Notes: generated from the sequence alone by a model not told the origin. A stretch of 48,535 bases of DNA from a virus (IMGVR_UViG_3300019861_000001:1-48535); one strand, 5' to 3'. Positions 1 to 48,535 are shown, counted from the stretch's first letter. Made by a program: numbers and translations.

Positions 1-141
1 GAGTAAATAATAACTTAATTTATAGGAGGTATTAGTTATGGGTTTTTTAGACATCAACCTTGGAGATGCAAAAGAACCAAAAGCAGCTGCTGAAGGTGAG
101 TATCTTATTAGATGGCTGGATACTAATGAGGGGATAGATAA
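1..141. repeat. Terminal direct repeat, left copy (identical to 48395-48535)
   Basis: Compared base by base: 141/141 identity with the window end. The repeat contains the stop of ORF 48060-48404 and the first 104 nt of ORF 38-427. Confidence 0.95.
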
Positions 142-2189: not shown

Positions 2190-2432
2190 ATGGCTACTAT
2201 ATCTAACCTCGCCATTTCTATTAGTGAGATGGATGAAGAGACTTTATTCAACTTTATACGGTCTCTACGTAGTAATAGACGTAAATCTATGTTAGTTAAT
2301 CCAGTCAGAAAAACATCTACCACTCCTAAAACTCCTGCCGCTACATTAAACATAGAGTCAATATTATCTAACATGTCAGAAACGGATAAGGAAAACTTAC
2401 TACAGATATTGGAGGGTAAAACAAATGGTTAA
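2190..2432 (+). CDS. Hypothetical protein
   Basis: 80-aa ORF tightly packed between neighbours. Weak SD. Confidence 0.6.
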   Translation: MATISNLAISISEMDEETLFNFIRSLRSNRRKSMLVNPVRKTSTTPKTPAATLNIESILSNMSETDKENLLQILEGKTNG

Positions 2433-3789
2433 TGAGTATAGATTAGACGTTCTACCTATAGACAAAATAGAGTCTGTGGATAGATCTAGAACTGAGCTTG
2501 GAGATATAGATGAGTTAGTTAACTCATTCAAAAAGTATGGAATTATACAAACACTAGCAGTGTCAATAAACCAAGGTGCTACTGTAGATGGTAAACCCTA
2601 TCGTCTTTTAGTTGGTGGACGTAGATATGAAGCTGCTCTACGTGCAGGTATAACCGAGGTTCCTGTGAAGATATATACTGAAGAATTATCTGAAATGCAG
2701 ATGAAATCCATCGAGTTAGAGGAAAACCTCAGACGTAAAGACCTCACGTTTATTGAGAAATGTAAACTAACTCGTGAAATTCATGACTTGCAGATATCTC
2801 TATATGGGAGGAAAATTTCTACTTCGTCTGATGCTGTTGGTCATTCTCTACGTGATACAGCAGATATGCTAAACGTGAGTCATGCAACTGTAGTTAATGA
2901 CATGAAGTTAGCTAAGGCTATGGAACAGTTTCCTGAAGTAGACTGGGGAGGATGTAAGAATCAATCAGATGCCCTCAAAGTTCTTGCCAAGTTTGAGGAG
3001 CGTATAGTTAGGGCTGATCTATCAGATCGTGCATCTAAGATTATGAAATCCTCTAGAACACAGAAGATAATAGATTCCTATGTTCTAGGAGATTTCTTTG
3101 AGAAGGTCAAAGGAGTTCCATCTAACTCTATTGACTTAGTTGAGGTTGATCCTCCTTATGCAATAGACCTACCTAATATGAAAAAAGAACATACTATTAA
3201 CTATGGAGACTCTTATAACGAAATAGAGATGAGTGCTTATATCCCTTTCCTTGGTAAAGTTTTGGATGAGGCTTATAGAATTATGAAGGAGGATAGTTGG
3301 CTTATCTTCTGGTTCGGGCCTGAACCTTGGTTTGATATTGTTTATAATCTAATCAAACAAGCCAAGTTTGAAACTCGCAGACTCTGTGGTATATGGGCTA
3401 AAGCTACTGGACAGACTAAACATCCAGACATCTACCTCGCTCAGAGTTATGAGATGTTCTATTACGCCCGTAAAGGTAACGCAGTTATCAATATAGATAA
3501 ACGTGGTAGGAGTAACATCTTCGCTTTTGACCAAGTTTCTCCGACTAATAAAATTCATCCTACTGAACGTCCAGTTCCTTTAATGGAGGAACTCCTTCGT
3601 ACTTTTACGTGGGAAGGATCAAGGATTGTAGTTCCTTTCGCTGGTTCTGGAAACACCTTGAGAGCTGCATTTAATCTTAGTATGTTTCCTATAGGGTATG
3701 ACACATCCAAGGAGTATAAAGATAGTTTTACTGTTAGAGTCCTCAAAGAGGAGAAAGGAGAACAAGATGTTGAGAATAGTAGTAACTAA
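2425..3789 (+). CDS. ParB-N-domain / HTH / DNA methyltransferase fusion (N6-A or N4-C type)
   Basis: N-terminus YRLLVGGRRYEAALRAGITEVPV is ParB/Srx-like. Central HTH LRDTADMLNVSHATVVNDMKLAK. MTase motif IV VDPPY and motif I VVPFAGSGNT, in beta-class order. Confidence 0.8.
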   Translation: MVNEYRLDVLPIDKIESVDRSRTELGDIDELVNSFKKYGIIQTLAVSINQGATVDGKPYRLLVGGRRYEAALRAGITEVPVKIYTEELSEMQMKSIELEENLRRKDLTFIEKCKLTREIHDLQISLYGRKISTSSDAVGHSLRDTADMLNVSHATVVNDMKLAKAMEQFPEVDWGGCKNQSDALKVLAKFEERIVRADLSDRASKIMKSSRTQKIIDSYVLGDFFEKVKGVPSNSIDLVEVDPPYAIDLPNMKKEHTINYGDSYNEIEMSAYIPFLGKVLDEAYRIMKEDSWLIFWFGPEPWFDIVYNLIKQAKFETRRLCGIWAKATGQTKHPDIYLAQSYEMFYYARKGNAVINIDKRGRSNIFAFDQVSPTNKIHPTERPVPLMEELLRTFTWEGSRIVVPFAGSGNTLRAAFNLSMFPIGYDTSKEYKDSFTVRVLKEEKGEQDVENSSN

Positions 3790-7932: not shown

Positions 7933-9079
7933 TAATAGTGAGCCTCCATTTCTATTCAGAACTTGGACTGCAATTAGTGTAATAGCCGGAGCTCTTAAAC
8001 GTAAGTGCAAACTCCCTTGGGGTATGCTTACATTCTATCCTAATATGTATATTATCTTAGTTGCTCCTCCTGGTAAGGCTAGGAAAGGAACGGCTATGGG
8101 GCCTGGTCTTGAGTTCTTGAATGAGTTAGGTATTAGATTAGCGGCTGAAGCTACAACACGTGAAGCACTTATTAAATGGTTAGGAGGAAGTAATGACACT
8201 ATTGTACACCCAGATGGAAAGACAGAATTCCATGCTTCACTCACTATTTATAGTGAGGAACTTACTGTATTTTTAGGATACCAAAATCGTCAACTTATTA
8301 ACGATCTTACTGATTGGTACGATTGTCGTGGTAGATGGACATACCGTACTAAGAATATGGGTACTGATGATATTATTGGGGTATGGGTTAATCTACTTGG
8401 TGCTACGACCCCAGATATGATACAGATGGCTATGCCCATCGAAACTGTAGGAGGAGGTCTAGCTAGTCGAATGATCTTTGTATTTGAGAGGAAGAAGGAA
8501 AAGACAGTTCCAGTAACTTTCCAGACTAAAGAAGAGTTAGAACTAAGGGAACTATTATTAAAGGATCTAGAACAGATACACATTATGCAAGGGGAGTTTA
8601 AGATAACCAATGATTTTCTAAATAGATGGATAGACTGGTACACCAGCCAAGGTGATAACCCTCCATTTGAGGACGATAAGTTTGCTGGGTATATAGAACG
8701 TAGACCAGCCCATATTCTAAAACTTAGTATGATACTCAATGCTTCAAGAACTAACTCTATGCTTCTTGATGTACAAGACTTTGAGCGGGCATTATCTATA
8801 CTTGGAGATACAGAGGTCAAAATGCCTCTAACATTTGGAGGAGTTGGAAAGTCTGTAATGTCAGATATAACATATAGGTTTATGGTTGAGATAGCTCTAC
8901 AAGGTGAGTGTACTATGTCCCACTTAATAGGCAGATTCTACAAAGATGTTAGTAAGTTCGAGATGCAGAAAATCCTTGAGTCGTTAGAATTAATGAAGTT
9001 TATATTCTACGTCTTCAAGGATAATCAGCAAAAAATAGTGTGGAATAAAGAGTGTAAGGAATCAGAGAAGTTTATGTAA
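7877..9079 (+). CDS. P-loop NTPase, candidate replicative helicase (DUF3987-like)
   Basis: 400-aa ORF with SD GGAGG. Overlaps the polymerase end by 56 nt. Walker A-like VAPPGKARKGT. Function rests on position next to the polymerase and a remembered family resemblance. Confidence 0.45.
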   Translation: MTLKRHLPDWLENYLKYTDNSEPPFLFRTWTAISVIAGALKRKCKLPWGMLTFYPNMYIILVAPPGKARKGTAMGPGLEFLNELGIRLAAEATTREALIKWLGGSNDTIVHPDGKTEFHASLTIYSEELTVFLGYQNRQLINDLTDWYDCRGRWTYRTKNMGTDDIIGVWVNLLGATTPDMIQMAMPIETVGGGLASRMIFVFERKKEKTVPVTFQTKEELELRELLLKDLEQIHIMQGEFKITNDFLNRWIDWYTSQGDNPPFEDDKFAGYIERRPAHILKLSMILNASRTNSMLLDVQDFERALSILGDTEVKMPLTFGGVGKSVMSDITYRFMVEIALQGECTMSHLIGRFYKDVSKFEMQKILESLELMKFIFYVFKDNQQKIVWNKECKESEKFM

Positions 9080-12000
9080 CTACAGCCCCTCTCCTAATCC
9101 TTCTCCCAATCCTCCAAGACCAGAATCTAGACCATTAGGTTTCTTGGTCTTGCGAGTATAGAATAGATACTCCTTAAGATTCCCTGTCTCACTAAGTTTC
9201 TTTATATCCTTAATTCCTCTAAATCCAGGAACTAGTCCACCTAATCTCTCTTTAAAGGAATCCCAAGTAGAGTCAAGATTTCTACCAGACTGTATAGCCC
9301 TTAATAACTGTATAAAATCCCAGACTAAGTTAGGGACATATCCAAAGTTATTAGGCATAGCCCCTAGAAGTATACTACTCTTATAGTCTATCCCAGTAAA
9401 TTTATTTAGAGCCCAGAATACTAAGAACTGACCTGCTGTTCTAGCAGCTGCTTTTCCATCCCTTTCCCTTACCATTGACATAAGGTGATCTATATACGAT
9501 AGTGACCAACTAGAAAACTGTAGTCCTAGCTTTCCAGTTCTACCTTGCATAATCATAGGTAAGTCTATTCCATATAACCAAGCTGTGTTTGCCATAGCTT
9601 TCTCACCAGCTCGTATCCAATAAGAACGTGGGAGTCTAGGTCTACTAGTTTTAGCTTCGTAATATCCAGTAGAGAATCCATTTACAGCCCCTCCAAGGTC
9701 TATGTATTTATAAGCTACCATAAGCTGGTCTCTAATCTTTCTGGGTAACTCGCTAAACCCATGGATAGGTAATTCCTCAACTAAAAATTGAGATAGTCTA
9801 AGCTTTGCCATAGGAGAGTCAGCCATAGCATCTTTTATCTCCTGAGAACGAGAATGCATTACTCCTCTTGCGTATGCCTCAATACCATACTTGTTGACTA
9901 TTAACCACTGTTGTAATGAGTCACGAAGTGCTGGTCTAGGAGCTGCACCAAGATATGCAGCGTAACTTGCATTTAATAGAATATCTTCTACCTGCCTCAG
10001 TATCTTACTTCCTTCATCTTCCTTCATCCAGAGTTTTTTAGCTAAGTTCTTAACTGATCTATCTTTGGCTTTATCTACTCCCATAGGCCGTCTCATTACA
10101 GCCACATTAAAAAACTCCTTTACTAACTCCTGTTTATCAGGACTCATTTTCTTCTCTATTGGAGCTGCTTCCTTAATAGCCTCATTAAATACCCTAGTTT
10201 TAAGACCTCGTCTGTAGTATTCATTAAATAGCTTTCTCGCATCTAACTCTGTATCTACCAATCCCCCCTCAAATGCCTCTCTAAAATCAGCCCAGAACTC
10301 TAGCTCCTTCACACCTCTAGGGGAAAAGGAATACCTTATTGCAGCCTTCCTATTTTCTTCTGGTGTTCTCTTAGGACTATAATAGGGCTCTCTCTTAGGA
10401 GCCTGTATATCGTACTTGTCATAGAGATAGTTATATACTTTATTAAGTTTATTAAACGCATCTAATTCAAGCGGGGATAGTTCAGAAATAGGTAACTCCA
10501 ATCTTTGTGCTAAGGATATTCTTTTAAGTGCATCTGTAACATATTTCTTCCTTTGACGTCTAGGTATATTAGGATTATTTCTAATTGCTTTATCCAGAGT
10601 ATCAAATATCTCTCTATCAAGCTCATCCCCAACTCTAAGTCCCTCAATCCACCTCACCATTGCAGTTCTATAAGGTCTCATAACTTCATCACCAGCCCTA
10701 CGTCTCATAGGAAGTAACCATTTAGCTACCCCTAGTACATCTTCTGAAGGTCTAGTTTCATAAAACCTCTGAAGGTCAGCAATAACCCTATTGACGTGGG
10801 CATCAGTTAGTATATCACTATTCAAATCGAGTTTGGAATTCTCTATAAAATCACTGAGAGCATCTTCACTAACCTCATATCTATTCACCCCTTTCCTAAG
10901 TTCCTCCTTTACCTTTTGGGAGATATCAGGATTATTCAGTATTTCTCTCTCACTTTCTAATACTATATTTTCTATACTCATCAACTTAGCTTTAAGTAAC
11001 TGAGCCTCCTTGAAGGTGAGTTCACTTAGATCCTTGACATACCTGATACTATTGCTAGCTATCTTCCTAACATCCTTCTCAGTAAACCCTTTCATGTTAC
11101 CTAGACCTTTGAGGTCTTGAATATCAAGTTGAGTTGCCGGAGGTTCGTTCTTACGGGCACGTTCTATATACTCTCGAGTTAGTTTAGCATCAGCTGTCTC
11201 TGTTTTGAAGAGTCGTTTGGAGACGAACTCTGAGAGCTGTTGGAGACCTAACATATCAAGAGTAGTTGTTCCTACAATCTCTGGAAGATTCTCGTCAAAT
11301 ACTACATAGTTCCGTTCACCTGAGGAAGCTCCTATATAAGTGTTTCCTGGGATGCCTGCTTTGAGGAGGAGTTTAGAAGTCTTCTCCTTCCCTATACCAT
11401 ATATAAGTTCACTTTGAATATCCTCTCCAGTCATCTTAACAAAGTCTCTGACTTCTGAAGGTAACTTAGCTTGGTCTCTTAGTTGATCTACTAAGCGAGT
11501 TGCATCCAAATGCTGTAGATTCTGTTTAGAAATTTCACCTGAAGATACTTCCTTGACTATCTCTTTAGCTATAGCCTCACATTTATTAGAAGGAGCAGGC
11601 TTATCCAAATCCAACCACTCAGCATCTTCGGGAAGTTTGACTTCGTGGAGGACCCTTGATGATGTAGTATCTATAATACCTTTAGATGCTTCTTTTAATT
11701 TATTAATAACATCTACAGTCTCATTAATATATCCAGGAGTTGCAAGTTTATTATTTTCAAGTGTTTTAATATACTCTAGTTTTTTAGTCTCCTCTTTTAT
11801 CCATCTATTTATATGATCTCTAATATATTCATTTCTCTCTTTGCTAGCAGGAAGGCTTAGATATGCCTCATTCTTTATATACCTAAGCTTACCATCTTCA
11901 AGAAATTCAGATGCATCTTTTCCATTAATAGTAATATCTATATTTCTTCCAATACTCTTAGCATACCACTCCCCAACCTTCTTCTTACTCGTAAAGTAAT

Positions 12001-15000
12001 GTCCCCATCCCTTCATCTGAGCACCTTCACCACTACCAATAAACTCATTCTTAAACTTATCAAACTTACTCTTAGTCCCATGCCAAACTACCATCCCTCT
12101 CTCATCCGTGAAGATCTTCCATTTCTTAGCCTCGTTATAGGCCTGACGAACTAACCCCTTGACATCGTTCCAGAGGTCTCCTACTATTTCCTTCATCCGT
12201 GAGCGAAACTCTCCGTATTTCTGTTTTCCTTCTAGGAAGATTCCACGAGAAATAGTTCTAAGATTTTCTATAGAAGGTAGTTCTCTTAATTTTTTAGTGG
12301 CTGATTCATAGACTCTCCTCAACCCTTCTCCAGTCGCTCCACCTATATCAAACAATAAAGGAGCTCTATCACCTGTAGGTTTCTCATAAGGCTCACCTTC
12401 AACAGGTTCACGAACTACCTCGGCCGGATCTAGCTCCAATACCTCCTGTAACCCATAAGGTTGTTGGGCTTCCTCTATATCCACCTTCTCCTGCTCTGAC
12501 TGAACTTTCCTAGCTACCTCTAACATCTTGTTAGCAGCTTCATTATGTTTCTGGAATGTCTCAAAGTCAGGAAAGTCCTCTCTAGTGAGAGAGATAGCTT
12601 TGTTAAGATCTTCGATAACATCGTCTATGTTAGCCTTGCCAGTACTAACTTTCTGTAATTTCTTCTGTGTCTTCTGCAGAGTTTTGAGCGGATTCTTACG
12701 AGCTTCCTCTATGGTAATTTTTTTACCATAGGTTGCAGGTTTGGTAACTACGTCAATCTTCTCTTCACTAGTTAGTTCCTGTTCAGGTTTTTCAGCAACA
12801 GTGTTCCTACGATCTATCTCCGCCTGAACTATATCAGCCTGAGTAGGATCAATACTTCTAGCAGCATCTCTCATTGCTTCAAGATCATCAATAGAGAGCT
12901 TATCCATCTCCTCACGATATTGACGTTCGAACTCTAAGTCCTCGTCAGGGGGTAGTTCCTCTATAGGCTCTCTCTGTCTCTTTATATCCTGTATCTTCTC
13001 CTCAGTCTTTCTCTGTAGCTCTTCTCCTTTCTTTCTCAACTCCTCTTCCTTAGCTTTATACTCAGGAGTTTCTCTAATAACTGTGAGTTTCTCTTCTAAC
13101 CTTTCCTCAGTAGTTTTAGGAACTTCTTCCTTCGGCTTTATCTTCTCCTCAAAAATCTCAACAGTCTTCTTATCAAGTGACTCCCTGAGTTTCTGTGCAT
13201 CTAATACTGCCTGAGCAGCTTCACGTTTAACCTTCTCTACCTCTTCAGGTTTCTTAGCTACTTTCTCCTTCGCAATAGCATCCAGCTGTGCTAACCTCTT
13301 TTCTACTACTGCCCTCTTCTCAGGCCTCTCCTCTAACCACTTCGCCAACTCAACATTATTCATATCCATAGGAATAACATTGTCCATCAGGGTCTTGAGT
13401 ACTCTCTGCTTATCAGCAGATTTAAAAGCCTGATTACTCTTGGTAAGTCCAAGGTCCTGAAGAACTTGATAATAAACATCTTTACCAAGTAACTTCTTAA
13501 GTTCTTTAGCCTTATCTAGATATACTTTATCTTGTGTTCTACGTTTAGTAACTTCTATCTTCTCAGTTACTATAGCTTTTTCAGTCGTACGTCTTTCCAA
13601 TTCAGCCTTGGCAGATGGAACACTCTCAGACATTTCTTTGAGAGCAGTATCACTAACCCTATACTTTCCTGTCTCAGGATTTTTCTCAGAAAATACTCCA
13701 CCTACACCCTCAGCAGATGGAGTTACTGTGGGAGCCTCAGTAGCTTCCTTACCTTTAAGTATCTCCTCAGCAACGGTCTTAGCACTCTTCTCCAATCCTT
13801 GCTCTTTTAACTTCTTATTAGTATCTGCTTCCATCTTAGTCAACGTAGCTGGATACCCATGCCAGACCATCATAGTAGTAAAGATAGCATTACCTACTCT
13901 ATCATAGAAATCCATCTGTTTAGATGTATCAGTCCCTGGGACAGGAGTTAATAGTGCTGTTCCAACAGCTATTCTCATTAACCTATTGAATGGAAAAGCT
14001 CCCCTTGCTAACCCTACAGCTCCACCCATCCTAGCTCCTGAGACATATGCCTGAGTAGCAGTCTTAATTTTACCCTCAAGAGTAGGAGCTGTAAGGATAT
14101 TACCTAATTGTTCAGTTGTAGCTGCAGTACCAAACTGTACTGCCTCTCTAACTATACCTGTAGCTACTCTTCGTGCCGTAGTCTTAGCTAGGGCATTACT
14201 CAGTTGTGGAAAAGCTTTCTTTAAAACTTTAGTTGAGAACGCTAAAGCCATAGCAGGAGCGGATACACGTTTCAAAGGAGTTAAATATGCTGCACCTTGA
14301 GCTGCCATAGTACCCAACTTCTCCCACTTAACAGCCTTTTCAGGATTCCACTTATCAGGGAAGAATATATCATTTAGAGTCTGTCCTGGTTCTAGATCTT
14401 TGCCAGAAGCTATTACCATACCAGCCTGAGGTAACTGCCCAGTTGCTGTGTTGACAAACTGAGCAGCACTACGTTTGAGGAGGCCTTCGAAAGACGGCTC
14501 TTCAGTAGAACCTGTCTTTATATACTTCTGCATCTTACCTAAAATTTCTAACTGTTTAGGTGAATACATAGTATTACTAAAAGTCTCCTGTCCCCTCTGA
14601 GCTATCGATGGCTCATTTAAATAGCCACGAATATAGGCATCGTGAATAGCTATCTCATTAGCGTCTTTTCCATTCACATCTTCCCACCAAGACTTCTTTG
14701 CAGCTATTCTCTTCATCTCCTCAGGAGTATAGTTCTGTTTGAACTCTTCTCTTAACTTAGTCCATTCTGGGTCTCTACTCATTCCATGAATCAGATCCCC
14801 ATAAACTGCCTTTCTTAATAACTCAGGATTATTCCTAAGCTCATCACTATACACCTCTACTACATTTTTTCCTCCTTCAGTAGGATGCTCCCATCCAGGT
14901 ATCCCAGTCTCATCAGAAGGCCAGTACTCCAGTCCTCCCATCTTACTACCTATCTTAGTTCTTTCAGGAGAAGCTAAAATAACATCAGTGTCTTCTAGTG

Positions 15001-15319
15001 AGTGGGTCTTCTTAAGTCCAGGATTAGCCTCCAGAACTTGAGCTAGTATATCTCTAGGACTAGGCCCCATATACTCAGCCTCTGTCTTAGGAAATACATT
15101 AGGACCTACTGCTCCTCTTGCTGCAACTTCCAGCACGGAAGGACCTGGAGGAGGAGCTAATGCCTCTTTAAGAAACGTTCCTGTTTTTGAAAGGAGCGAA
15201 GGCTGTTCCTCTTCCTCCACTCCTAAATCTAACTTAGGAATACCATACTTACTGAGCACACCAGAGGTTTCTTTACTGTCTTCAATAGTAGCAATCTGGT
15301 ACTTATCTAGCACACCCAT
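9080..15319 (-). CDS. Giant (2079 aa) polyvalent internal-virion/ejected protein with ART-like module
   Basis: Last gene of the late arm, after two Gly-rich virion proteins. Gly/Ala hydrophobic segment (about aa 330-500). Lys/Glu coiled coil (about aa 500-1000). Module VVWHGT..F..F..GSGEGAQMKGWGHYF ... NYVVFDE (about nt 11280-12100). Hydrophobic C-terminus ending GLGGLGEGLGEGL. The ORF itself is certain; the function is inferred. Confidence 0.6.
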   Translation of the reverse strand: MGVLDKYQIATIEDSKETSGVLSKYGIPKLDLGVEEEEQPSLLSKTGTFLKEALAPPPGPSVLEVAARGAVGPNVFPKTEAEYMGPSPRDILAQVLEANPGLKKTHSLEDTDVILASPERTKIGSKMGGLEYWPSDETGIPGWEHPTEGGKNVVEVYSDELRNNPELLRKAVYGDLIHGMSRDPEWTKLREEFKQNYTPEEMKRIAAKKSWWEDVNGKDANEIAIHDAYIRGYLNEPSIAQRGQETFSNTMYSPKQLEILGKMQKYIKTGSTEEPSFEGLLKRSAAQFVNTATGQLPQAGMVIASGKDLEPGQTLNDIFFPDKWNPEKAVKWEKLGTMAAQGAAYLTPLKRVSAPAMALAFSTKVLKKAFPQLSNALAKTTARRVATGIVREAVQFGTAATTEQLGNILTAPTLEGKIKTATQAYVSGARMGGAVGLARGAFPFNRLMRIAVGTALLTPVPGTDTSKQMDFYDRVGNAIFTTMMVWHGYPATLTKMEADTNKKLKEQGLEKSAKTVAEEILKGKEATEAPTVTPSAEGVGGVFSEKNPETGKYRVSDTALKEMSESVPSAKAELERRTTEKAIVTEKIEVTKRRTQDKVYLDKAKELKKLLGKDVYYQVLQDLGLTKSNQAFKSADKQRVLKTLMDNVIPMDMNNVELAKWLEERPEKRAVVEKRLAQLDAIAKEKVAKKPEEVEKVKREAAQAVLDAQKLRESLDKKTVEIFEEKIKPKEEVPKTTEERLEEKLTVIRETPEYKAKEEELRKKGEELQRKTEEKIQDIKRQREPIEELPPDEDLEFERQYREEMDKLSIDDLEAMRDAARSIDPTQADIVQAEIDRRNTVAEKPEQELTSEEKIDVVTKPATYGKKITIEEARKNPLKTLQKTQKKLQKVSTGKANIDDVIEDLNKAISLTREDFPDFETFQKHNEAANKMLEVARKVQSEQEKVDIEEAQQPYGLQEVLELDPAEVVREPVEGEPYEKPTGDRAPLLFDIGGATGEGLRRVYESATKKLRELPSIENLRTISRGIFLEGKQKYGEFRSRMKEIVGDLWNDVKGLVRQAYNEAKKWKIFTDERGMVVWHGTKSKFDKFKNEFIGSGEGAQMKGWGHYFTSKKKVGEWYAKSIGRNIDITINGKDASEFLEDGKLRYIKNEAYLSLPASKERNEYIRDHINRWIKEETKKLEYIKTLENNKLATPGYINETVDVINKLKEASKGIIDTTSSRVLHEVKLPEDAEWLDLDKPAPSNKCEAIAKEIVKEVSSGEISKQNLQHLDATRLVDQLRDQAKLPSEVRDFVKMTGEDIQSELIYGIGKEKTSKLLLKAGIPGNTYIGASSGERNYVVFDENLPEIVGTTTLDMLGLQQLSEFVSKRLFKTETADAKLTREYIERARKNEPPATQLDIQDLKGLGNMKGFTEKDVRKIASNSIRYVKDLSELTFKEAQLLKAKLMSIENIVLESEREILNNPDISQKVKEELRKGVNRYEVSEDALSDFIENSKLDLNSDILTDAHVNRVIADLQRFYETRPSEDVLGVAKWLLPMRRRAGDEVMRPYRTAMVRWIEGLRVGDELDREIFDTLDKAIRNNPNIPRRQRKKYVTDALKRISLAQRLELPISELSPLELDAFNKLNKVYNYLYDKYDIQAPKREPYYSPKRTPEENRKAAIRYSFSPRGVKELEFWADFREAFEGGLVDTELDARKLFNEYYRRGLKTRVFNEAIKEAAPIEKKMSPDKQELVKEFFNVAVMRRPMGVDKAKDRSVKNLAKKLWMKEDEGSKILRQVEDILLNASYAAYLGAAPRPALRDSLQQWLIVNKYGIEAYARGVMHSRSQEIKDAMADSPMAKLRLSQFLVEELPIHGFSELPRKIRDQLMVAYKYIDLGGAVNGFSTGYYEAKTSRPRLPRSYWIRAGEKAMANTAWLYGIDLPMIMQGRTGKLGLQFSSWSLSYIDHLMSMVRERDGKAAARTAGQFLVFWALNKFTGIDYKSSILLGAMPNNFGYVPNLVWDFIQLLRAIQSGRNLDSTWDSFKERLGGLVPGFRGIKDIKKLSETGNLKEYLFYTRKTKKPNGLDSGLGGLGEGLGEGL
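12709..12731. repeat. 23-bp palindrome family copy inside the giant ORF: CTATGGTAATTTTTTTACCATAG
   Basis: 9-bp perfect arms. Read in frame as YGKKITI on the minus strand. Confidence 0.85.
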
Positions 15320-15328
15320 CTCAATCTC

Positions 15329-16669
15329 CTATTTCTTTTTCTTGTTTTTATTGTCTTCTAACATCATTTGATAAGCCTCCCAAACCGTTACTCCCTCACC
15401 CTTCGCTACTTTCTGAACATCTCCCATAGTCCAGTCCCCAGGAAGAGTTACTCGTTCTTGTAGATTAAACAATCCCTTTCCAGGGTCATATATAATCCTA
15501 GAGTTAGGATCTGCAGTTTTATTCTGCACATCAACAGGATCTACAGTCCCAGCACTTATCCCTGCTTTAAGATTCAACTGTTCCTGCTCAGTTATCTCTC
15601 CTGGAGGACGTGGAGTAGGAGCATTACCTACTACAAATCCCTCCTTAGCAAGTCTAGCCCTCTCAGCATTAGCTCTAGCATATGTAGTAGTAATTGGAGG
15701 CATAGGTCTACCATCTTTAGGATTATAGTATTCTATTGTAGTAAGACCTTCCCAAGGATTAGCTCTATCACTTGGAGCACGATCACCTAACCTAATCATC
15801 TTCTGCCCTGTACTCTTATTATACAGCCATACTCCGTCAGAAAGTGTAACTTCTTCTAAGTCAGCCTTCTTAGATAACGGGATTCCAGTATCAAAAACTG
15901 AACCATCTCTCTCACTCATAAGCCATATATTACCATTAGGCCCATCTATCTGAACTCTTCTCTCAGCTTCTCCAGGTTTCAATACTTCTCGTAGAAAATC
16001 CGCAGTTTCTAACCCTAACCTCTGTCCTTGCATACTCCTTCCAGCCAGTGCGTCAATCATCTCTGGTGATAGCCCAGCATAATCAGCACTGGTCAATCCT
16101 GCTGGGCTACCTTGAAAACCCGATAAAGCCTTTATAAGAGTATCATAAGGGCCTGCTCCTCCACCACTCATAGGGGCAGTTGGAGCACTTGGAGTACCTG
16201 GAATATTAGGACTTCCTAATGTTAGGTCCTCCTTTCCAACTCCTCCTACTTTAGTCTGAGGTCCTACTCCTGGAACGTTACCTTTAATATTAAAAGTTCC
16301 ATCAGCATCCTCAGAGTAAGTAGTAGGTCCTGTAACTCCCTTAGAAGTTAACCCTCCTAACGCTCTTATTACACTCTGCACATAGGTCTGTTTTTCCCTA
16401 TCAGCCCTTTCCTGAGCTCTACCATAGATATTAGACGTTCCCATTCCAGTTGCAACAGCTCCAAGTCTCTGTTGCCAAGAGTCCTTAGGTGCAAGGGCAG
16501 TAGCTAACATTCCTAATGTCTGTCCTATCCTATCTCTATTCCACTGTCCTGCCTGAGGATTTGCTACTCCTGCAGCAGTTTCAGCTGCTGTAGCTTCTGG
16601 GAACCTAAACCCAGCTCTAGTAGCTCCCTCATTGAGCTTATCGAATAAACCACTCCAGTTAAAATCCAT
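15329..16669 (-). CDS. Gly/Pro-rich internal virion protein candidate
   Basis: 446-aa ORF with SD AGGAGGG. Low-complexity Gly/Pro stretches. Adjacent to the giant protein. Confidence 0.5.
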   Translation of the reverse strand: MDFNWSGLFDKLNEGATRAGFRFPEATAAETAAGVANPQAGQWNRDRIGQTLGMLATALAPKDSWQQRLGAVATGMGTSNIYGRAQERADREKQTYVQSVIRALGGLTSKGVTGPTTYSEDADGTFNIKGNVPGVGPQTKVGGVGKEDLTLGSPNIPGTPSAPTAPMSGGGAGPYDTLIKALSGFQGSPAGLTSADYAGLSPEMIDALAGRSMQGQRLGLETADFLREVLKPGEAERRVQIDGPNGNIWLMSERDGSVFDTGIPLSKKADLEEVTLSDGVWLYNKSTGQKMIRLGDRAPSDRANPWEGLTTIEYYNPKDGRPMPPITTTYARANAERARLAKEGFVVGNAPTPRPPGEITEQEQLNLKAGISAGTVDPVDVQNKTADPNSRIIYDPGKGLFNLQERVTLPGDWTMGDVQKVAKGEGVTVWEAYQMMLEDNKNKKKK

Positions 16670-21991: not shown

Positions 21992-22711
21992 CTACACCTC
22001 TATCTCAGTTATTGCAGTTACTTCTTCTTCGGCTATATCCTTACCAATCTCAAGGACATCGTAGGCTATAGCATCTAGCATATTTTTGAGTTTATACCTA
22101 TCTTTGTAGAACAACTCGAGTTGATATACAGCTGCTTTTATAAGAACATCTGGAAACATAAGAGTCCAAATATTAGTATCAGCATCAAGGGAAAGAAGAG
22201 GTTGATAGAAGTCTCCTACTATCTCTACATCTATCTGTTCATCAGTTGCGGGCAGAACTATGATTCCTCTAAAATCCTTAGAGTTTGCTAGGGTATAGTT
22301 GTAGAATACCCCAGTAGCACCTTTATCAGTTGCGTCTACCTCACGTAGTTTAGCTGGGCAATAATATAGAGGTTCTCCATTATCTGATGCAGAGATAGTC
22401 TCTGGATATTCCCCTTTCAACCATTCCCAACTCTTCTTCTCTAACTGATAGCGTTCATCTGAAGTATTAATCCAGACGTCAGTTATAAACCTACAGCGTT
22501 TTTGGAAGGAAACGTAGTATCCTCCAACAGCTAATGTCTCCCATATTCTACCTTCTGAGTCAGGAAGTGTCCCTACAATTCGTTCCAGCATATCCTGACC
22601 AGCTTGGATATAGTAGTTAGCTCCATTGTCTACCCAAGCTGTAGTATCCACTACCAAGTCATACCTACCACTTATTTTAACAAATTGAGTTCTTACACTA
22701 AGTAAGTTCAT
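21992..22711 (-). CDS. Hypothetical virion protein (head-tail adaptor candidate by position)
   Basis: 239-aa ORF, two genes downstream of the capsid gene. Confidence 0.4.
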   Translation of the reverse strand: MNLLSVRTQFVKISGRYDLVVDTTAWVDNGANYYIQAGQDMLERIVGTLPDSEGRIWETLAVGGYYVSFQKRCRFITDVWINTSDERYQLEKKSWEWLKGEYPETISASDNGEPLYYCPAKLREVDATDKGATGVFYNYTLANSKDFRGIIVLPATDEQIDVEIVGDFYQPLLSLDADTNIWTLMFPDVLIKAAVYQLELFYKDRYKLKNMLDAIAYDVLEIGKDIAEEEVTAITEIEV

Positions 22712-23014: not shown

Positions 23015-24139
23015 TTATACAATATTATCTAACCCTACCCCATTGAGATAGCCCCAGCCAGTTGGGAAATGGAACTCAATGCCCATCTCAGTCAGGTATT
23101 CCTCGTTTGTCCCATCCTTCCTGGTATATCCAGTATTCTGTTTCTCATTGTCAGGATAGAAAGTAGTATCAGTAATGATCCTACTTTTCAGATTTGCCGG
23201 CTCATAGATAACCATACTATTCCTATTAGCCGCTTCATAAGAGAACAGAGGATGAGTTTTAATGTTGATCTTTCCAAATGGAGTTACCCACTCAATAACT
23301 TGAATCCCATAGGATTTAGTCTGAGGAGTAAATGTCCATTGACCATAGGTCTTAGCGATCTTGTTAAGACCCAGAAGTGCTCCACTACCAGCGAGACAGA
23401 GTTTCTCAGCACTACCATACCTGAACATAAGTTCAAGATAGGTATCAATCCAGTCCTCACCACTGGCAATCCACGTGTCTCCTGAGTAAGTAGCGTTGAG
23501 TGTGAAGTCATTGACATTAGCAGACGCATAGGTCTTGATAATATCAACTAGCCCTCGAGTTGTTCTCTCAGGCTTACCATTAGCCCCAATATTCTCAGTC
23601 ATGATACCCCAGATAGATGCTTTCTCCATCTCGATAGAATGGAGTTCCAAACACTCACGTTTCATCTCTTTATATGCATCTCCAGTCCTTAACTTAGTCT
23701 GCCGAGCAGTACGAGTAATATCCAGAGATGTTCTAAAGATCTGAGTATAATTGTAGATCTTGACAGGGTCATAACTGATAGCATCTGGCATAGTCGCACC
23801 CTCAGGGTTGATATTACCAATTACTAACAGTCTGTCGGCATCACTAATATCATGACTTTGAGCGGTAGTAGTGTCAGCCTCCAATAGTTTAACTGTTATA
23901 CAAGAACTAGCGCCATTCTTCTGGACAGCCATAACCTTGGCATTGACATCTACCTCATAATCACTCTGATCACGCAGAAGAACTTGATGTCCAGCTCTAA
24001 AGTGATCTGAGTCTGCTTCAGAACATTTGATGTAGAGAACAGAGCCAGCAACACCACCTGATACATATGCAGCAGTCATAGCCGCATCAGTATAGCGACC
24101 AGTAATAGTTGCTGCTTGAGTAGGTAGAGTCTTAGTCCA
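23015..24139 (-). CDS. Major capsid protein, exon 2
   Basis: The frame stays open 60 nt upstream of the track ATG (24079) back to WTKTLPTQAATITGRYTDAA, with no SD before 24079. It joins in frame to exon 1. The junction is uncertain by 1-5 nt. Confidence 0.7.
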   Translation of the reverse strand, partial: WTKTLPTQAATITGRYTDAAMTAAYVSGGVAGSVLYIKCSEADSDHFRAGHQVLLRDQSDYEVDVNAKVMAVQKNGASSCITVKLLEADTTTAQSHDISDADRLLVIGNINPEGATMPDAISYDPVKIYNYTQIFRTSLDITRTARQTKLRTGDAYKEMKRECLELHSIEMEKASIWGIMTENIGANGKPERTTRGLVDIIKTYASANVNDFTLNATYSGDTWIASGEDWIDTYLELMFRYGSAEKLCLAGSGALLGLNKIAKTYGQWTFTPQTKSYGIQVIEWVTPFGKINIKTHPLFSYEAANRNSMVIYEPANLKSRIITDTTFYPDNEKQNTGYTRKDGTNEEYLTEMGIEFHFPTGWGYLNGVGLDNIV

Positions 24140-25007
24140 CCCGGACTATCATTAAACTTTCATTTAATGCTGGACTATATCTTAACCCTTAGTCAAGGGT
24201 TTGACATTATAGTCTCTGAAGGTTTCATTGCATCTAAGTATTTATGGATTCTACTTGATTTTCTCATAACATGGAAGAAACATCCACTATCTATAAACGA
24301 GCGTATATTAGGTTTAATAACATACATAGTAGTCCCATGCCCAGAAATCTGCTCATGAATCTTTCCTACTTTTACTCCTAGTTTCTGGAGAAGTCTTGTT
24401 ACATCTTCTACTAGAGTTTTTATTCTTGCAGCATATCCAAGTCTCCACGATAGCCCAAATCTAGAACCTGGATTCTTATTCTCTACTATTGTCCCATCTG
24501 TATCAAACAATCCAGCTACGAAATTTAATCTAGCATTTTTACTAGCCCTGAAGATCTCGTCTGCAAGAAACAGTTTCTCTCTAATAAAATAATGAAAGAA
24601 ATCATAAATAAGCTCGTTATTAATAGCTAATGAGTACATAGTAGTTTTGTTAGGATTTACATAACTTGAGACAGTGTAGTTACCACCAAATAGTACATTA
24701 ATCTCCTCACATACTCTTACTACACATTCTAAATCCATATTAGCTATCATAACATTGTTGTTAGTTAACATTCTTTCACCATTCCAAGTAACATACTTCT
24801 TAACACTTCCATCACCTAATAAAGCTCCTATAGAGTATCCAACTACTTCGATGTATTTATCCATAACTTGCAATGAATTTCCCTGCTGATTGTCCATTGT
24901 GTTATCCTCCTTAGTTTTACGCTTTGGTCAAGAGAGGCTTTAGGATTTTCCAGCAATTTCTGTCATTTATTCGACGGGATTTCGCCCGAAGCAACCAGTG
25001 AACTCTA
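24140..25007 (-). mobile_element. Group-I-like intron (~868 nt) carrying a LAGLIDADG homing endonuclease ORF
   Basis: Interrupts the capsid ORF. P1-like pairing: exon CAACT (25007-25011) with intron GGTTG (24992-24996). Long-range helices bracket the ORF: TGCTGG/CCAGCA (24950-24955 / 24168-24173) and TCTTGACC/GGTTAAGA (24926-24933 / 24180-24187). The intron ends in G. Confidence 0.65.
24193..24897 (-). CDS. LAGLIDADG homing endonuclease (double-motif)
   Basis: Motifs IGALLGDGSV and FVAGLFDTDGTI. SD AAGGAGG 8 nt upstream. Confidence 0.85.
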   Translation of the reverse strand: MDNQQGNSLQVMDKYIEVVGYSIGALLGDGSVKKYVTWNGERMLTNNNVMIANMDLECVVRVCEEINVLFGGNYTVSSYVNPNKTTMYSLAINNELIYDFFHYFIREKLFLADEIFRASKNARLNFVAGLFDTDGTIVENKNPGSRFGLSWRLGYAARIKTLVEDVTRLLQKLGVKVGKIHEQISGHGTTMYVIKPNIRSFIDSGCFFHVMRKSSRIHKYLDAMKPSETIMSNP

Positions 25008-25172
25008 GTTGAACTCAGGATCATCTACCTTCTCTGACCCCAATTTAGACATTACTGCAGTTAAAGGAGCCGAGCCGTTAGGGTATTCATACAGAATAAC
25101 CTCTCTCCAGTTCTTCGGCCTCTGGTCAGTAGCCCAGTCTCCAGTTCCACGCATTCCTAAAAATCCAGCCAT
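25008..25172 (-). CDS. Major capsid protein, exon 1 (55 codons)
   Basis: ATG 25172 has SD AGGAGG. MAGFLGMRGTGDWATDQRPKNWREVILYEYPNGSAPLTAVMSKLGSEKVDDPEFN is, from memory, the conserved N-terminus of an HK97-fold podovirus capsid family. It runs into an in-frame TAG at 25005-25007. Confidence 0.7.
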
Positions 25173-28379: not shown

Positions 28380-28637
28380 CTATTTCTCCTTTCTTTCATT
28401 ATCTTCAATAATATTATCTAAAATTATTTGAGGCATTAGTAAGAACTTTCTTACTGCCTCAGCACTACCTTGTAAATTTTTAAGTGTCTCAAAGTCAGGA
28501 GTTCTTTCCTTACTTTCTAAGGAGCTACGTATATCTTCTATCCACATCTCAAGTTCATGCGAGATATCTCTCCACACCGATCCCTCAAGAAATTCTCTAA
28601 AAGCAGTAGCAGAACTGATATATTCCCTATCACTCAT
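28380..28637 (-). CDS. Hypothetical small protein (start moved to MSDREY)
   Basis: ATG 28637 has SD GGAGG. Overlaps the portal stop by 8 nt. Confidence 0.55.
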   Translation of the reverse strand: MSDREYISSATAFREFLEGSVWRDISHELEMWIEDIRSSLESKERTPDFETLKNLQGSAEAVRKFLLMPQIILDNIIEDNERKEK

Positions 28638-30564
28638 ACATACCTCCCATAGTTTCAGGAGCAGGAACACCTCGCTGAGGTAGAGGAACTATATTTCCCC
28701 TATTAGCCTGCTCCATAACTTGCTCATCAGGAAGAACCTTAGGTTTTACCCTAAAATCTGAGACATTTTTAGCTCCTCCCAACGTAAAGATATACTCATA
28801 TATTCGTACCATATCAAACTGCTGTCCAACTCCAGGGTTTTCTGTTAGTATTTTAGCTATCTGAGACCATAATTCTGTAGGTCCATTAGGTAAACTACCA
28901 TCACTAATAGTAACATCATAATTAGTCATTATATCAAATGGAGTTACCTTAGCCCTTTTATCGTTCCCAAACATCTGAGCTAATTCTTCTTGCCATCTTC
29001 CTGTAATATCTACATAAGTCTCTTCACTCATTAGTTGCTTAGTGTGCTCAGCCATCATATATCCTAGATCATGGAAGGCTTGCATACTAATAATACGTGC
29101 AAGTCGCTCAACACGAGAGATAGCAGATGAACGTGTACCCTGAAATTCCCCTTTTGTTAGTCTCTCAGGACCTCCTTGACGTAGAATTCCCATCAAACTT
29201 TCATCTACAGCACCTATTCTCTGCATCCACTCGAGGATAAAGGAGGAATCCTGGATATTAGCACGAGTAATATCCGTAACATTGAGCTGTTGAACTACAT
29301 CCTTTACTCCTTTTCCCCATGCAGGCCGACGTAGACGAACAAACTTGCCAGGTCCAGGGTCTTTGAAATCAGCCATGTTGACCTGATAGGGATCAACTAC
29401 AAACATATCATTAATAGCTTTACGGACATTAGTGATATGAGAGTTAAAAAGAAAGTTTAGTACCTCCTGCATACCGTAAAGAATCTCAGTACGAGCAAGT
29501 GGAAGTACTGAGTAACCATCAAAGTCAGGAGCTGCAGTGATAATAGGGAACATATTATGAGTTAGACCAAGTTTTTTAGCTTGAATAATAATCTCATCAT
29601 TAGCTAGGGCAAATAACCACTTCTCTGGTTGTTCCACAGTCCCAAGTCTCCACTCTTTAGGGATAAGATCTACATACATCCAGATAACATCAACAGAGTT
29701 GTGAATAGTTACATCGAGAGTAGTGTAAGAGTCAGTTCCTGTTTTCTTATTACGATCTGACATTTTATCTTTGAATATTGAGCTACCCTGTAAGGTAGAA
29801 TCCTTTAGATACTTAACGTTAAACATAGTACCATTACTGGTAGATTCACGTTTCATTAGATCAATGCGTGTAGTGGGTTCCACCCATCCTACAAACTCCC
29901 CATCTTGAATTCGCTGTACTGGAACAGAAGGATCAGGGAGGTAAAAATAGGGGTCTATGTTATTAAGTTTATTCCCCTCATATATAACAGTCTCCCTAAA
30001 ATCCCTACCTCCATATAAGTTTCTATATGGTCTGTACCCCATATTCTTAACCCATACAGGGGCTCCAGCTCCTACTCCATAAACCAGAGAATCTCTGAGA
30101 AATGTATGAAGAGCAAGACCCATCTTGGAGCGATAAGTTTGATGCCTAATAACCTTCTCCAATAACATAGTACCTACCGTATCCTCTGGAGAAACTCCCT
30201 CGTACTTTAGAATAGGATCATTAAGGAAAGCCATAACTAGATAAGTAAGAATAGTCTCCATTATAACGAAGCTGTAAGGAAACACTATTGACACTGGTTT
30301 GCGACTATCTTCAGTCTTAAGTTTACTTTCCTTATCGTCTAACTCAATATACGCAGTTATAACTCGTTCTATCTCATTCCAAGAACTAGTACGGTTGGAG
30401 ATAAGATTATGAGACTCACGAGCCCGAAATAGTATCTCCTCTTTAAGTCTAACATGAGTAGGAGAACCAGGTCTAAGATCTAAACCATAAGGATAAGTAT
30501 ATCCCAGATCCTTATTTAGAAGATCTGTAGAACCAAAATTAAGTTGTCCTTGCAGTATCTGCAT
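28630..30564 (-). CDS. Portal protein
   Basis: 644-aa ORF abutting TerL with no gap. Called on size and position only; no motif was verified. Confidence 0.7.
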   Translation of the reverse strand: MQILQGQLNFGSTDLLNKDLGYTYPYGLDLRPGSPTHVRLKEEILFRARESHNLISNRTSSWNEIERVITAYIELDDKESKLKTEDSRKPVSIVFPYSFVIMETILTYLVMAFLNDPILKYEGVSPEDTVGTMLLEKVIRHQTYRSKMGLALHTFLRDSLVYGVGAGAPVWVKNMGYRPYRNLYGGRDFRETVIYEGNKLNNIDPYFYLPDPSVPVQRIQDGEFVGWVEPTTRIDLMKRESTSNGTMFNVKYLKDSTLQGSSIFKDKMSDRNKKTGTDSYTTLDVTIHNSVDVIWMYVDLIPKEWRLGTVEQPEKWLFALANDEIIIQAKKLGLTHNMFPIITAAPDFDGYSVLPLARTEILYGMQEVLNFLFNSHITNVRKAINDMFVVDPYQVNMADFKDPGPGKFVRLRRPAWGKGVKDVVQQLNVTDITRANIQDSSFILEWMQRIGAVDESLMGILRQGGPERLTKGEFQGTRSSAISRVERLARIISMQAFHDLGYMMAEHTKQLMSEETYVDITGRWQEELAQMFGNDKRAKVTPFDIMTNYDVTISDGSLPNGPTELWSQIAKILTENPGVGQQFDMVRIYEYIFTLGGAKNVSDFRVKPKVLPDEQVMEQANRGNIVPLPQRGVPAPETMGGMYE

Positions 30565-32145
30565 TTAGATTATCCTCCAATTCTCATAGGGTTTTTCGAA
30601 ATCCAGTTCTTCATATTCTTTTTCAGGGTCTTCCCCCATATCAGGAGGGTCGAAGTAGTAAGCCAACTCATCCATTATCTTGTTAATATAAGCAGCTGCA
30701 TCCATCACGTCCCACAACTTGGAACGAGGAAAGGAACGAAGTTGAGTCTCAAGAGGCCCACAGTTGTTCTTATTATGATACATATAGCCGAGTTTATATA
30801 GAGGAGCAAGATTAGCTATTCTTCCTTCTTTCTTCCCAATAGCCTGAAGTTCAATATATGTAGGGTGAACGTTACGAACTCTCATTTCGTTTTCAATAGG
30901 TTGAGAGATGAACTGGTGAAGAGAAGTTACTTCAACTCCCAATATCATACTTTTGTATCGTAATAGTTGCCCAAACATCATGTTGTATAGGGCATCAGGT
31001 CTAACCCGCCTAGATTCTATTGCCCGAACGAAGATTTTGTGAGATTCTCTATCAACTGCTATTGTCAAAACTGCACTCTCAGCAGAGTGAAGTTGGACAG
31101 TTTTAGCTGGATCACAAATAGTAACATGGAGTAGGCGAGAGGTAGGGATTTTTTCGTCTACAATAACTCCAGTCTCAGTTACTGACTTAACAACTAGTTC
31201 GTCTCCATAATCTTCAAAATAGTGAAAATACTCCTCCTTAAAAACCGCATCCTCAATGGATATAGGAAGATTCATACGCTCCATATAGAAGAGATCCATT
31301 AGACCTTTCCTACGATGTTCTTCTACTTCTTCCTTTATTTGTGTAGTAGTCATATAGTTTACATCATAAGATTCATAGTTCTCATTGCAGATAGAAAGAC
31401 GAATAGATGACCACTCAGGAGAATCAAGAAGAAGTTGGAGTAATGAGTCCTCATGTTTAATAGTATCAATATAGATAATAGTAGGAGGTTTCCCATACAT
31501 ATCTTCAGTTTTCATTACGTCAGAGAAAAACCACTCCTTTTGTTTCTGACGTAGATCCTCATTTCGTAGATCTTCTTTATTTTCTAGATCATCAATGATG
31601 ATTAGATCTGGACGATAGTTTGCCCAGTTCAATCCACGAATCTGCTGACCCATACCACGAGGGAGAACAAAAGTAGTACCAAAGGCTACCCACGCAAGTT
31701 TACTAAATGTGTCGTCTACTTCACCCACATCACTGATCTTAATACTGCCAAATAGAGACCTTACGGTTTTATTAGTTAATAGTGTACGTTTCATATTCTC
31801 AGTTTGCATTTCAGCTAGAGTAGCACTGTTTGAGAGATAGACTATAAAATGATAGTCTCTAAATAGTATTCCTTTATTAGCTATAGTACGTGCAATAGAA
31901 GTCTTTCCTAATCCACGTGGAGCAGCTATAGCTTTTTTGCTGTTGGAATTAGATATGGTCTCAAATATCTTATCATGAAGCATAGAGAAAGGAGCTGAAA
32001 AGATCTCAGGAAAAATAGCTTTACACATGAACTTAGTATCTATATAACAATTATGTAAGATACTTTTAGTTCTTTGAGTGAGATCACCTTCAACCTGTGG
32101 TAAAATTTTTACCATAGGTTCAGTCGTTTGGTACGTGTTTTCCAT
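30565..32145 (-). CDS. terL: Terminase large subunit
   Basis: Walker A AAPRGLGKTS and Walker B LIIIDDLE, with a C-terminal nuclease-sized domain. 526 aa. Confidence 0.85.
   Translation of the reverse strand: MENTYQTTEPMVKILPQVEGDLTQRTKSILHNCYIDTKFMCKAIFPEIFSAPFSMLHDKIFETISNSNSKKAIAAPRGLGKTSIARTIANKGILFRDYHFIVYLSNSATLAEMQTENMKRTLLTNKTVRSLFGSIKISDVGEVDDTFSKLAWVAFGTTFVLPRGMGQQIRGLNWANYRPDLIIIDDLENKEDLRNEDLRQKQKEWFFSDVMKTEDMYGKPPTIIYIDTIKHEDSLLQLLLDSPEWSSIRLSICNENYESYDVNYMTTTQIKEEVEEHRRKGLMDLFYMERMNLPISIEDAVFKEEYFHYFEDYGDELVVKSVTETGVIVDEKIPTSRLLHVTICDPAKTVQLHSAESAVLTIAVDRESHKIFVRAIESRRVRPDALYNMMFGQLLRYKSMILGVEVTSLHQFISQPIENEMRVRNVHPTYIELQAIGKKEGRIANLAPLYKLGYMYHNKNNCGPLETQLRSFPRSKLWDVMDAAAYINKIMDELAYYFDPPDMGEDPEKEYEELDFEKPYENWRII
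32095..32117. repeat. 23-bp palindrome family copy CTGTGGTAAAATTTTTACCATAG inside the TerL 5' end
   Basis: Encodes PMVKILPQ of TerL on the minus strand. Lies 3 nt past the stop of the upstream gene (32120). Confidence 0.85.
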
Positions 32146-48059: not shown

Positions 48060-48404
48060 ATGATACATATTAGAACCAACAGATCAGAAACATCAACCGA
48101 AATATTAAGAGTAGAGGAAGTAGCTTTCATCAGAGGAAAGATTGAGGATAGAAAGTACAAGACTCAGGTCTTTCTAAAGTGTGGGACTATTGTTCATATG
48201 AATCTAGACAAGAAGGAATTTCAATCTTTGAAGGACTCTATTTATCCACCTACTCAAGTGGAAGTCTGCAAAAACTATAATGATAAGCCGGCTCAAACAG
48301 GACTTGGACCTTTATTCATACAGACAGATGAATCTCCAGATGAATCGCCAAAAGATATAGTAGACACAATGTTGGATGATCTCTCAGATACTGAGAGTAA
48401 ATAA
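48060..48404 (+). CDS. Hypothetical protein with acidic C-terminus
   Basis: 114-aa ORF with SD GGAGG. Confidence 0.65.
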   Translation: MIHIRTNRSETSTEILRVEEVAFIRGKIEDRKYKTQVFLKCGTIVHMNLDKKEFQSLKDSIYPPTQVEVCKNYNDKPAQTGLGPLFIQTDESPDESPKDIVDTMLDDLSDTESK

Positions 48405-48535
48405 TAACTTAATTTATAGGAGGTATTAGTTATGGGTTTTTTAGACATCAACCTTGGAGATGCAAAAGAACCAAAAGCAGCTGCTGAAGGTGAGTATCTT
48501 ATTAGATGGCTGGATACTAATGAGGGGATAGATAA
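48395..48535. repeat. Terminal direct repeat, right copy (identical to 1-141)
   Basis: See 1-141. Confidence 0.95.
48432..48535 (+). CDS. Duplicate 5' fragment of ORF 38-427 created by the terminal overlap
   Basis: Identical sequence, truncated by the window end. Not a separate gene. Confidence 0.9.
   Translation, partial: MGFLDINLGDAKEPKAAAEGEYLIRWLDTNEGID

Follow-up and report, generated by a model that had tools for sequence, protein, structure and literature searches.

A giant phage protein with a predicted ADP-ribosyltransferase module of the ART-PolyVal family

Architecture of the 2079-aa protein

We analysed a 48,535-nucleotide (nt) stretch of viral DNA (IMGVR_UViG_3300019861_000001:1-48535, referred to throughout as the window) and, within it, one open reading frame (ORF) that takes up 6240 of the 48535 nt (12.9%) and encodes a protein of 2079 amino acids (aa). 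An earlier note, written from the sequence alone, had singled out this ORF as a polyvalent virion protein with an ADP-ribosyltransferase (ART)-like module, and had given its length and its 13% share of the genome correctly. The ORF lies on the minus strand at 9080..15319, with its stop codon at 9080-9082 and an ATG start at 15317-15319. The ATG is preceded, at a distance of 7 nt, by an AGGAG Shine-Dalgarno sequence (15326..15330, minus strand) that shares bases with the TAG stop codon ending the 446-aa gene upstream; the two genes are thus coupled in one operon. Among 50,697 phage records, megablast with the gene gave no match and tblastn with the protein just two weak ones, both to the ART module.

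The segments of the protein, all encoded on the minus strand, follow one another in the order that the earlier note had proposed. An N-terminal globular domain (aa ~85-272; 14504..15067), with GGLEYWP at aa 128 in its conserved core, is followed by an Ala/Gly/Thr-rich backbone segment (aa 276-500; 13820..14494) that is well conserved in the two closest relatives, P0002 and P0003. The hydrophobic Gly/Ala stretch of the earlier note falls within this segment at aa ~335-500, where Gly and Ala together make up ~0.28 of residues, but it is only mildly hydrophobic: no 19-residue window reaches a Kyte-Doolittle value of 1.5, and the segment contains no clear transmembrane helix. A Glu/Lys-rich variable spacer comes next (aa 501-985; 12365..13819), in which Glu and Lys reach 0.42 of residues per 50-aa block and which varies more among the orthologues than any other part. 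A conserved helical linker of ~90 aa (aa 986-1076; 12092..12364), found in relatives with or without the ART, opens with a degenerate copy of a junction motif, LLFDIGG...RRVYE, and leads into the ART-PolyVal module (aa 1077-1348; 11276..12091), which we delimited from Pfam, homologues, residue conservation and an AlphaFold2 (AF2) model. The module begins with VVWHGT at aa 1077 and its closing motif, NYVVFDE, starts at aa 1337, which places it almost exactly at the predicted nt 11280-12100. After a further copy of the junction motif, TLDMLGLQ (aa 1353-1360; 11240..11263), the protein continues as a C-terminal domain of ~720 aa (aa 1361-2079; 9083..11239), the scaffold of this protein family, with 35-51% identity in syntenic orthologues. 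This long region ends in GLGGLGEGLGEGL, a GLGEGLGEGL tail of which the GLGEGL had already been noticed.

The N-terminal domain belongs to a family with 21 relatives in a word-indexed search, mostly standalone proteins of ~200 aa; neither the domain nor any of these relatives was assigned to a Pfam family. Ten residues were invariant across the family alignment (E131, W133, E137, H145, E155, H178, R190, D227, Y229 and R231), and the AF2 model of the domain had a predicted local distance difference test score (pLDDT) above 90 over its core. The best Foldseek match of this model in the PDB was weak (anthrax lethal factor, E 0.49, TM 0.34), and a search of BFVD returned one uncharacterised phage protein (E 1.5e-6) followed by weak crAss-like and SprT-like matches. 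These zincin-like hints fall short of identifying a metallopeptidase, the more so as the domain has no HExxH motif. The domain also occurs inside P0004 and inside the helicase-bearing, 3284-aa P0005. Standalone homologues of 188-217 aa lie within the structural modules of phage contigs carrying SU10_adaptor (L009, 8001-8654; L010, 6360-6926), and the homologue on L010 sits directly between the large terminase gene and the probable portal gene, which encodes 640 aa.

The ADP-ribosyltransferase module

The protein matched the Pfam family ART-PolyVal (PF18760, 'ADP-ribosyltransferase in polyvalent proteins') at aa 1076-1122 with 34.3 bits, against a gathering score of 31.2, and the module alone was also above the cut-off (33.4 bits). 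The alignment covers just profile positions 7-49 (7-51 at most) of 140, because two helical inserts (aa ~1142-1215 and ~1244-1320), which are normal in the family, interrupt the rest of the domain. An exhaustive phmmer search with aa 1060-1360, counted as cluster representatives at 50% identity, returned 6810 relatives at E<=1e-3 and 454 at E<=1e-10, and many of the matches spanned all 275 aa of the module. Most relatives belong to proteins 1600-7200 aa in length, in which the module is often present more than once, and a few are standalone proteins of 270-350 aa. The distance between the N-terminal and C-terminal motifs ranged from 135 to 434 aa in 189 extracted copies. Modules of the family span 180 to 430 aa, for which the 275 aa seen here is typical; even the minimal 135-aa copy (the first in P0158) has both ends of the module, including NYTIFDD. 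When the 33 members of the ART alignment were scanned with Pfam, 32 matched ART-PolyVal and 18 matched DUF3990, with weak cross-matches of two members each to RES (best E 6.8e-4) and to the PARP catalytic domain (best E 0.0089).

Residue conservation was tabulated across 190 copies of the module, and the 2079-aa protein keeps every conserved residue in the table. These comprise H1080 (nt 12080-12082, minus strand; the same residue in 185/190 copies), G1081 (186/190), Ser or Thr at position 1082 (183/190), G1097 (188/190), E1098 (177/190), G1099 (186/190), G1104 (189/190), G1106 (190/190), Y1108 (nt 11996-11998, minus strand; 189/190), Y1119 (nt 11963-11965, minus strand; 188/190), N1337 (nt 11309-11311, minus strand; 178/190), V1339 (186/190) and D1342 (nt 11294-11296, minus strand; 159/190). 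The module thus has an H-G-T motif and a spacing of 11 residues from Y1108 to Y1119. H-G-[ST] with two Tyr residues 11 apart is a signature of the pocket for nicotinamide adenine dinucleotide (NAD+), formed by H21, Y54 and Y65 in diphtheria toxin and by H862, Y896 and Y907 in PARP1. In the ART-PolyVal family, which belongs to the Tox-ART-HYD2 clade, the active site is composed of a His in strand 1, a Tyr in strand 2 and an Asp in strand 5 (Iyer et al. 2017, PMC5512222). The corresponding H-Y-D triad in the 2079-aa protein is H1080, Y1108 and D1342, the choice of D1342 resting on the family motif NYV[VI]FD. The H...Y...E pattern proposed in the earlier note therefore has to be amended in its third position: the conserved residue is D1342, and the Glu that follows it is unconserved.

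The AF2 model of the module, built on the 33-sequence alignment, had a pLDDT of 86.2 and a predicted TM-score (pTM) of 0.75. In it H1080 and Y1108 lie in beta-strands, and D1342 lies two residues past the end of the strand 1336-1340. Judged by its profile match above the cut-off, its 6810 relatives and its retained residues, the module is a member of the ART-PolyVal family, in line with the ART domains of phage polyvalent proteins to which the earlier note had likened it, and it looks catalytically intact.

Orthologues and domain exchange

Only two close relatives were found in the word-indexed search, P0002 (1604 aa) and P0003 (1716 aa); the contigs that encode them are 46-48 kb long and share the gene order seen here. 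In a three-way alignment the proteins share a common backbone from aa 276 to the end and show exactly two large differences. Where the query has aa 1-275, P0003 has an SLT lytic transglycosylase (its aa 31-127, 99 bits) and P0002 mostly has nothing. The ART (aa ~1080-1351) is missing from both, and at the junction the sequence runs ...GQRGMVSWGKEEK in P0003 and ...GQKGVINFEYTKKD in P0002, compared with ...DERGMVVWHGTKSK in the query. From their sequence, the two ART-less junctions resemble vestiges of ART strand 1 from which the His is missing, which would suggest that the ART was lost by independent deletions in P0002 and P0003.

The cassette composed of linker, ART and LDMLGLQ is common to seven other giant proteins (P0031 to P0040), whose C-terminal domains are distantly related to that of the query (hhalign probability 88.6%, E 2.6e-6, 535 columns). 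These giants pair the ART with an SLT, a DNA methylase or an InPase; one of them, P0031, has the SLT at its N-terminus. Since the orthologues are without the ART and P0003 carries an SLT at its N-terminus, the ART and the N-terminal domain appear to be exchangeable cargo on a conserved scaffold. Thus, the protein combines at least two unrelated globular domains that are recombined among relatives, the pattern by which polyvalent proteins are recognised, with an activity predicted for the ART only.

The junction motif, [TI][LI]D[ML]LG[LM]Q..[YF/L][ED], recurs before the linker and after the ART: it is found at 11240-11263 and 12335-12364 in the window, at aa 791 and 884 in P0002 and at aa 907 in P0003. 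A TLDMLGLQ-type motif precedes the linker in P0002, P0003 and P0033 and follows the ART in the seven closest giant-protein relatives. We rejected LDMLGLQ as a general ART-flanking or cleavage motif, as it was present after the ART in just 7 of 189 copies. All seven belong to the subfamily with a related C-terminal domain, and so the motif marks the start of that domain; it may be a cleavage site, a recombination joint or the first helix of the domain.

Genome context and proposed role

The first 141 nt of the window (1-141) are identical to its last 141 nt (48395-48535), from which we conclude that it is a complete, circularly closed assembly of ~48.4 kb (about 48,394 bp). Its minus-strand arm encodes a large terminase (30565-32145), a portal (28630-30564), a capsid protein matching Pfam SU10_MCP (23015-24079) and an adaptor with a weak SU10_adaptor match (21992-22711), together with eight more genes without an informative family match and then the 2079-aa gene. 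The protein is thus phage-encoded alongside virion and late genes, as polyvalent proteins are, and its gene is the last of the late arm, as the earlier note had stated. The two Gly-rich proteins that the note placed upstream are there, although at 12.6% and 10.7% Gly they are just moderately rich. A plus-strand arm ending in DNA polymerase and primase converges on the late arm. The primase gene ends at 9079 (plus strand), directly against the stop codon of the 2079-aa gene at 9080-9082 (minus strand), with 0 intergenic bases; no terminator-like site lies between the two genes, the nearest being at 9433-9447 (plus strand) within the large ORF. Relatives show an equally tight convergence.

The nearest annotated phage was Desulfofustis phage LS06-2018-MD01 (capsid 46% identical, portal 44%). 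Matches at greater distance included Caulobacter phage Kuura and Pseudomonas phages PaMx41 and 119X, and the portal also matched Polaromonas phage Tiera; Kuura and Tiera are podophages by transmission electron microscopy (PMC9959647). The convergent layout of the window recurs in the Desulfofustis phage and PaMx41, each with a very large last late gene (1577 aa and 1849 aa, respectively); that of PaMx41 (gp24) carries the annotation 'structural protein'.

Two further features of the window were observed. The major capsid gene is split (23018-25172, minus strand): residues 1-55 of the capsid protein of relatives with an intact gene map to 25172..25008 and residues 57-430 to 24139..23018. Between the two parts lie ~868 nt with an HNH-endonuclease-like ORF (24193-24897). 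Rfam also gave a group I intron match there, at 24151-24304, which stays below threshold (36.4 bits, E 2.6e-7; gathering score 50). The gene is probably interrupted by a group I intron with a homing endonuclease. At 2425-3789 (plus strand) lies a 454-aa fusion of a ParB-like N-terminal domain to a DNA methyltransferase, which relatives keep as ParB_N plus N6_N4_Mtase.

On balance, we think the 2079-aa protein is probably a virion-packaged, ejected polyvalent protein of a short-tailed (podovirus-type) phage that delivers an ART. Its scaffold would consist of the Ala/Gly-rich segment (aa 276-500), the linker (aa 986-1076) and the ~720-aa C-terminal domain, and its cargo of the N-terminal domain and the internal ART of the ART-PolyVal / Tox-ART-HYD2 family. 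The protein would be synthesised late and packaged with the capsid or tail, would be ejected with or ahead of the DNA in the manner of T7-like and N4-like internal proteins, and its ART would then use NAD+ to ADP-ribosylate a host macromolecule at the start of infection, as Alt of T4 does. An internal or ejected virion protein fits the late structural context and the SLT of the orthologue, and we infer packaging and delivery from the position of the gene, the SLT in orthologues and the 'structural protein' annotation of PaMx41 gp24.

The indirect nature of this case counts against the proposal, and so do several results. No homology to characterised ejection proteins was detected in searches of Pfam, PHROGs, NCBIfam and the PDB, and the protein has no sequence similarity to its positional counterparts in the Desulfofustis phage and PaMx41. 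The ART is dispensable for virion function, to judge from the close relatives that are without it. For the ART itself, PF18760 matched above its cut-off, but Foldseek of the AF2 model against the PDB gave no match with E<1. The Foldseek matches were dominated by the long helical inserts, whose hairpins draw efflux-adaptor proteins, and tankyrase PARP domains appeared as local matches only (32-41 columns, E 5.6-8.3). No ART came up in a profile search of PDB sequences, and phmmer against the same sequences gave nothing relevant. The weak cross-matches of alignment members to PARP, RES and DUF3990 lend the ART fold some support. We assign the module to the family by its profile match and residues and treat the ART fold as putative. 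ART-PolyVal is very abundant, yet no biochemically characterised member was found in the literature searched.

Comparison with known systems places the protein among those described by Iyer et al., whose prototype is the virion RNA polymerase (vRNAP) protein of Roseovarius Plymouth podovirus 1 (Iyer et al. 2017, J Bacteriol 199:e00245-17, PMC5512222). Like them it is a giant multi-domain protein with a PF18760 ART and an H-Y-D triad, encoded among late and virion genes, and its siblings pair the ART with the same range of partner domains noted above. Unlike the prototype, it has neither an N4-like RNA polymerase nor an HExxH metallopeptidase domain. It also departs from the described proteins in its N-terminal domain, which matches no Pfam family, and in its scaffold of Ala/Gly-rich segment and C-terminal domain, which is lineage-specific with distant relatives only. 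T7 gp16, which carries an N-terminal SLT lytic transglycosylase, offers a second parallel: it too is a large protein whose gene closes the structural block in a podovirus-type genome, and the orthologue P0003 and the relative P0031 have an N-terminal SLT as well. The 2079-aa protein itself has no SLT and carries an ART that gp16 is without, and sequence similarity between the two was not detectable. In position the gene resembles PaMx41 gp24, each being the last of a late arm that converges on a primase/DNA polymerase arm; the two phages also have distantly related capsid proteins (27% identity), whereas the 2079-aa protein and gp24 have no detectable sequence similarity. The delivery model for polyvalent proteins is Alt of T4, a head-packaged ART that is injected with the DNA (Iyer et al. 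2017, PMC5512222). By this analogy the ART described here would be delivered with the DNA and modify host targets at time zero. It differs from Alt, a single-domain myovirus protein with the R-S-E signature of the Alt/VIP2 clade, in sitting within a 2079-aa scaffold and in having H-G-T ... Y ... Y ... N-x4-D in place of R-S-E.

Other readings of the module and of the protein were weighed. The module could be a true ART-superfamily enzyme that does not act as Alt does, instead hydrolysing or phosphorolysing NAD+ (as RES and certain other toxins of the ART fold do), modifying DNA or RNA, or countering an NAD+-dependent host defence. The target of the ART is not readable from its sequence, and the cross-matches to PARP and to RES, a family of toxins that degrade NAD+ (best E 6.8e-4), would fit such an activity. 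So would the nearly invariant Asn (N1337, 178/190), at a position which, aligning by eye, we take to be that of the catalytic Glu of PARP and diphtheria toxin. Iyer et al. place the family in a polymorphic-toxin clade (PMC5512222). The same authors, however, put the Tox-ART-HYD2 clade near protein-modifying ARTs (PARPs, diphtheria and cholix toxins; Iyer et al. 2017, PMC5512222), and no result here points to a nucleic-acid target; we regard this alternative as unlikely. Much less probable still is a degenerate, catalytically dead remnant with a structural role. The shortness of the Pfam match (positions 7-49 of 140) and the loss of the module from two close orthologues could be read in this way, as could base composition: the ART segment (11267-12091) has a G+C content of 36.2% and a third-position G+C (GC3) of 26.9%, compared with 42.5% and 39.6% in the adjacent linker and 39.2% G+C in the genome. 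We treat the lower G+C as a weak hint about the history of the ART. The short match, however, is due to family-typical helical inserts, every family-conserved residue is kept, and the AF2 model is confident (pLDDT 86).

The protein might also be made late and remain unpackaged, acting in the infected cell in late host takeover, superinfection exclusion or assembly. The indirect case for packaging and the lack of homology to known internal virion proteins leave room for this, and T4 ModA and ModB, R-S-E enzymes like Alt, are phage ARTs outside the virion (PMC5512222). We give it a low probability, because the gene ends a structural operon to which it is translationally coupled, the orthologues carry an SLT, a cell-wall-cutting domain usually used for entry at such a genome position, the positional analogue, PaMx41 gp24, has a structural annotation, and a conserved scaffold with a length of 2079 aa is what one typically finds in ejected proteins. 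Great length, a largely helical sequence and Gly/Ala-rich stretches would also suit the tail tape measure protein of a long-tailed phage, which we consider close to negligible as an explanation. No gene follows the ORF on its strand, and hence no distal-tail or baseplate genes are found there; Pfam and PHROGs gave no tape-measure, tail-tube or tail-chaperone matches; the capsid protein matches SU10_MCP and the adaptor, weakly, SU10_adaptor; and electron microscopy shows the nearest cultured relatives to be podophages (PMC9959647). Genome context, with its podophage-type capsid and portal and the ORF as last late gene, thus rules out a tape measure protein.

A bolder interpretation, which we consider rather improbable, is that the protein represents an undescribed podoviral ejection-scaffold subfamily, in which effector cassettes are swapped by recombination at [TI][LI]DMLGLQ..Y[ED] and the N-terminal domain is a new enzyme family replacing the entry SLT of sister phages. 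If this were true, the ART could act on a non-protein target or against an NAD+-dependent host defence.

Returning to the delivered polyvalent protein that we favour, the 2079-aa protein is a divergent new example of the polyvalent ART proteins already described, and the current picture of these proteins is unchanged by it. What it adds is a set of near-syntenic phages in which the same scaffold occurs with the ART (the query) or without it (P0002 and P0003), and in which the N-terminus is an SLT, an unknown domain or nothing. Such an ART-plus/ART-minus scaffold pair is a convenient system for the role of an injected ART in infection.

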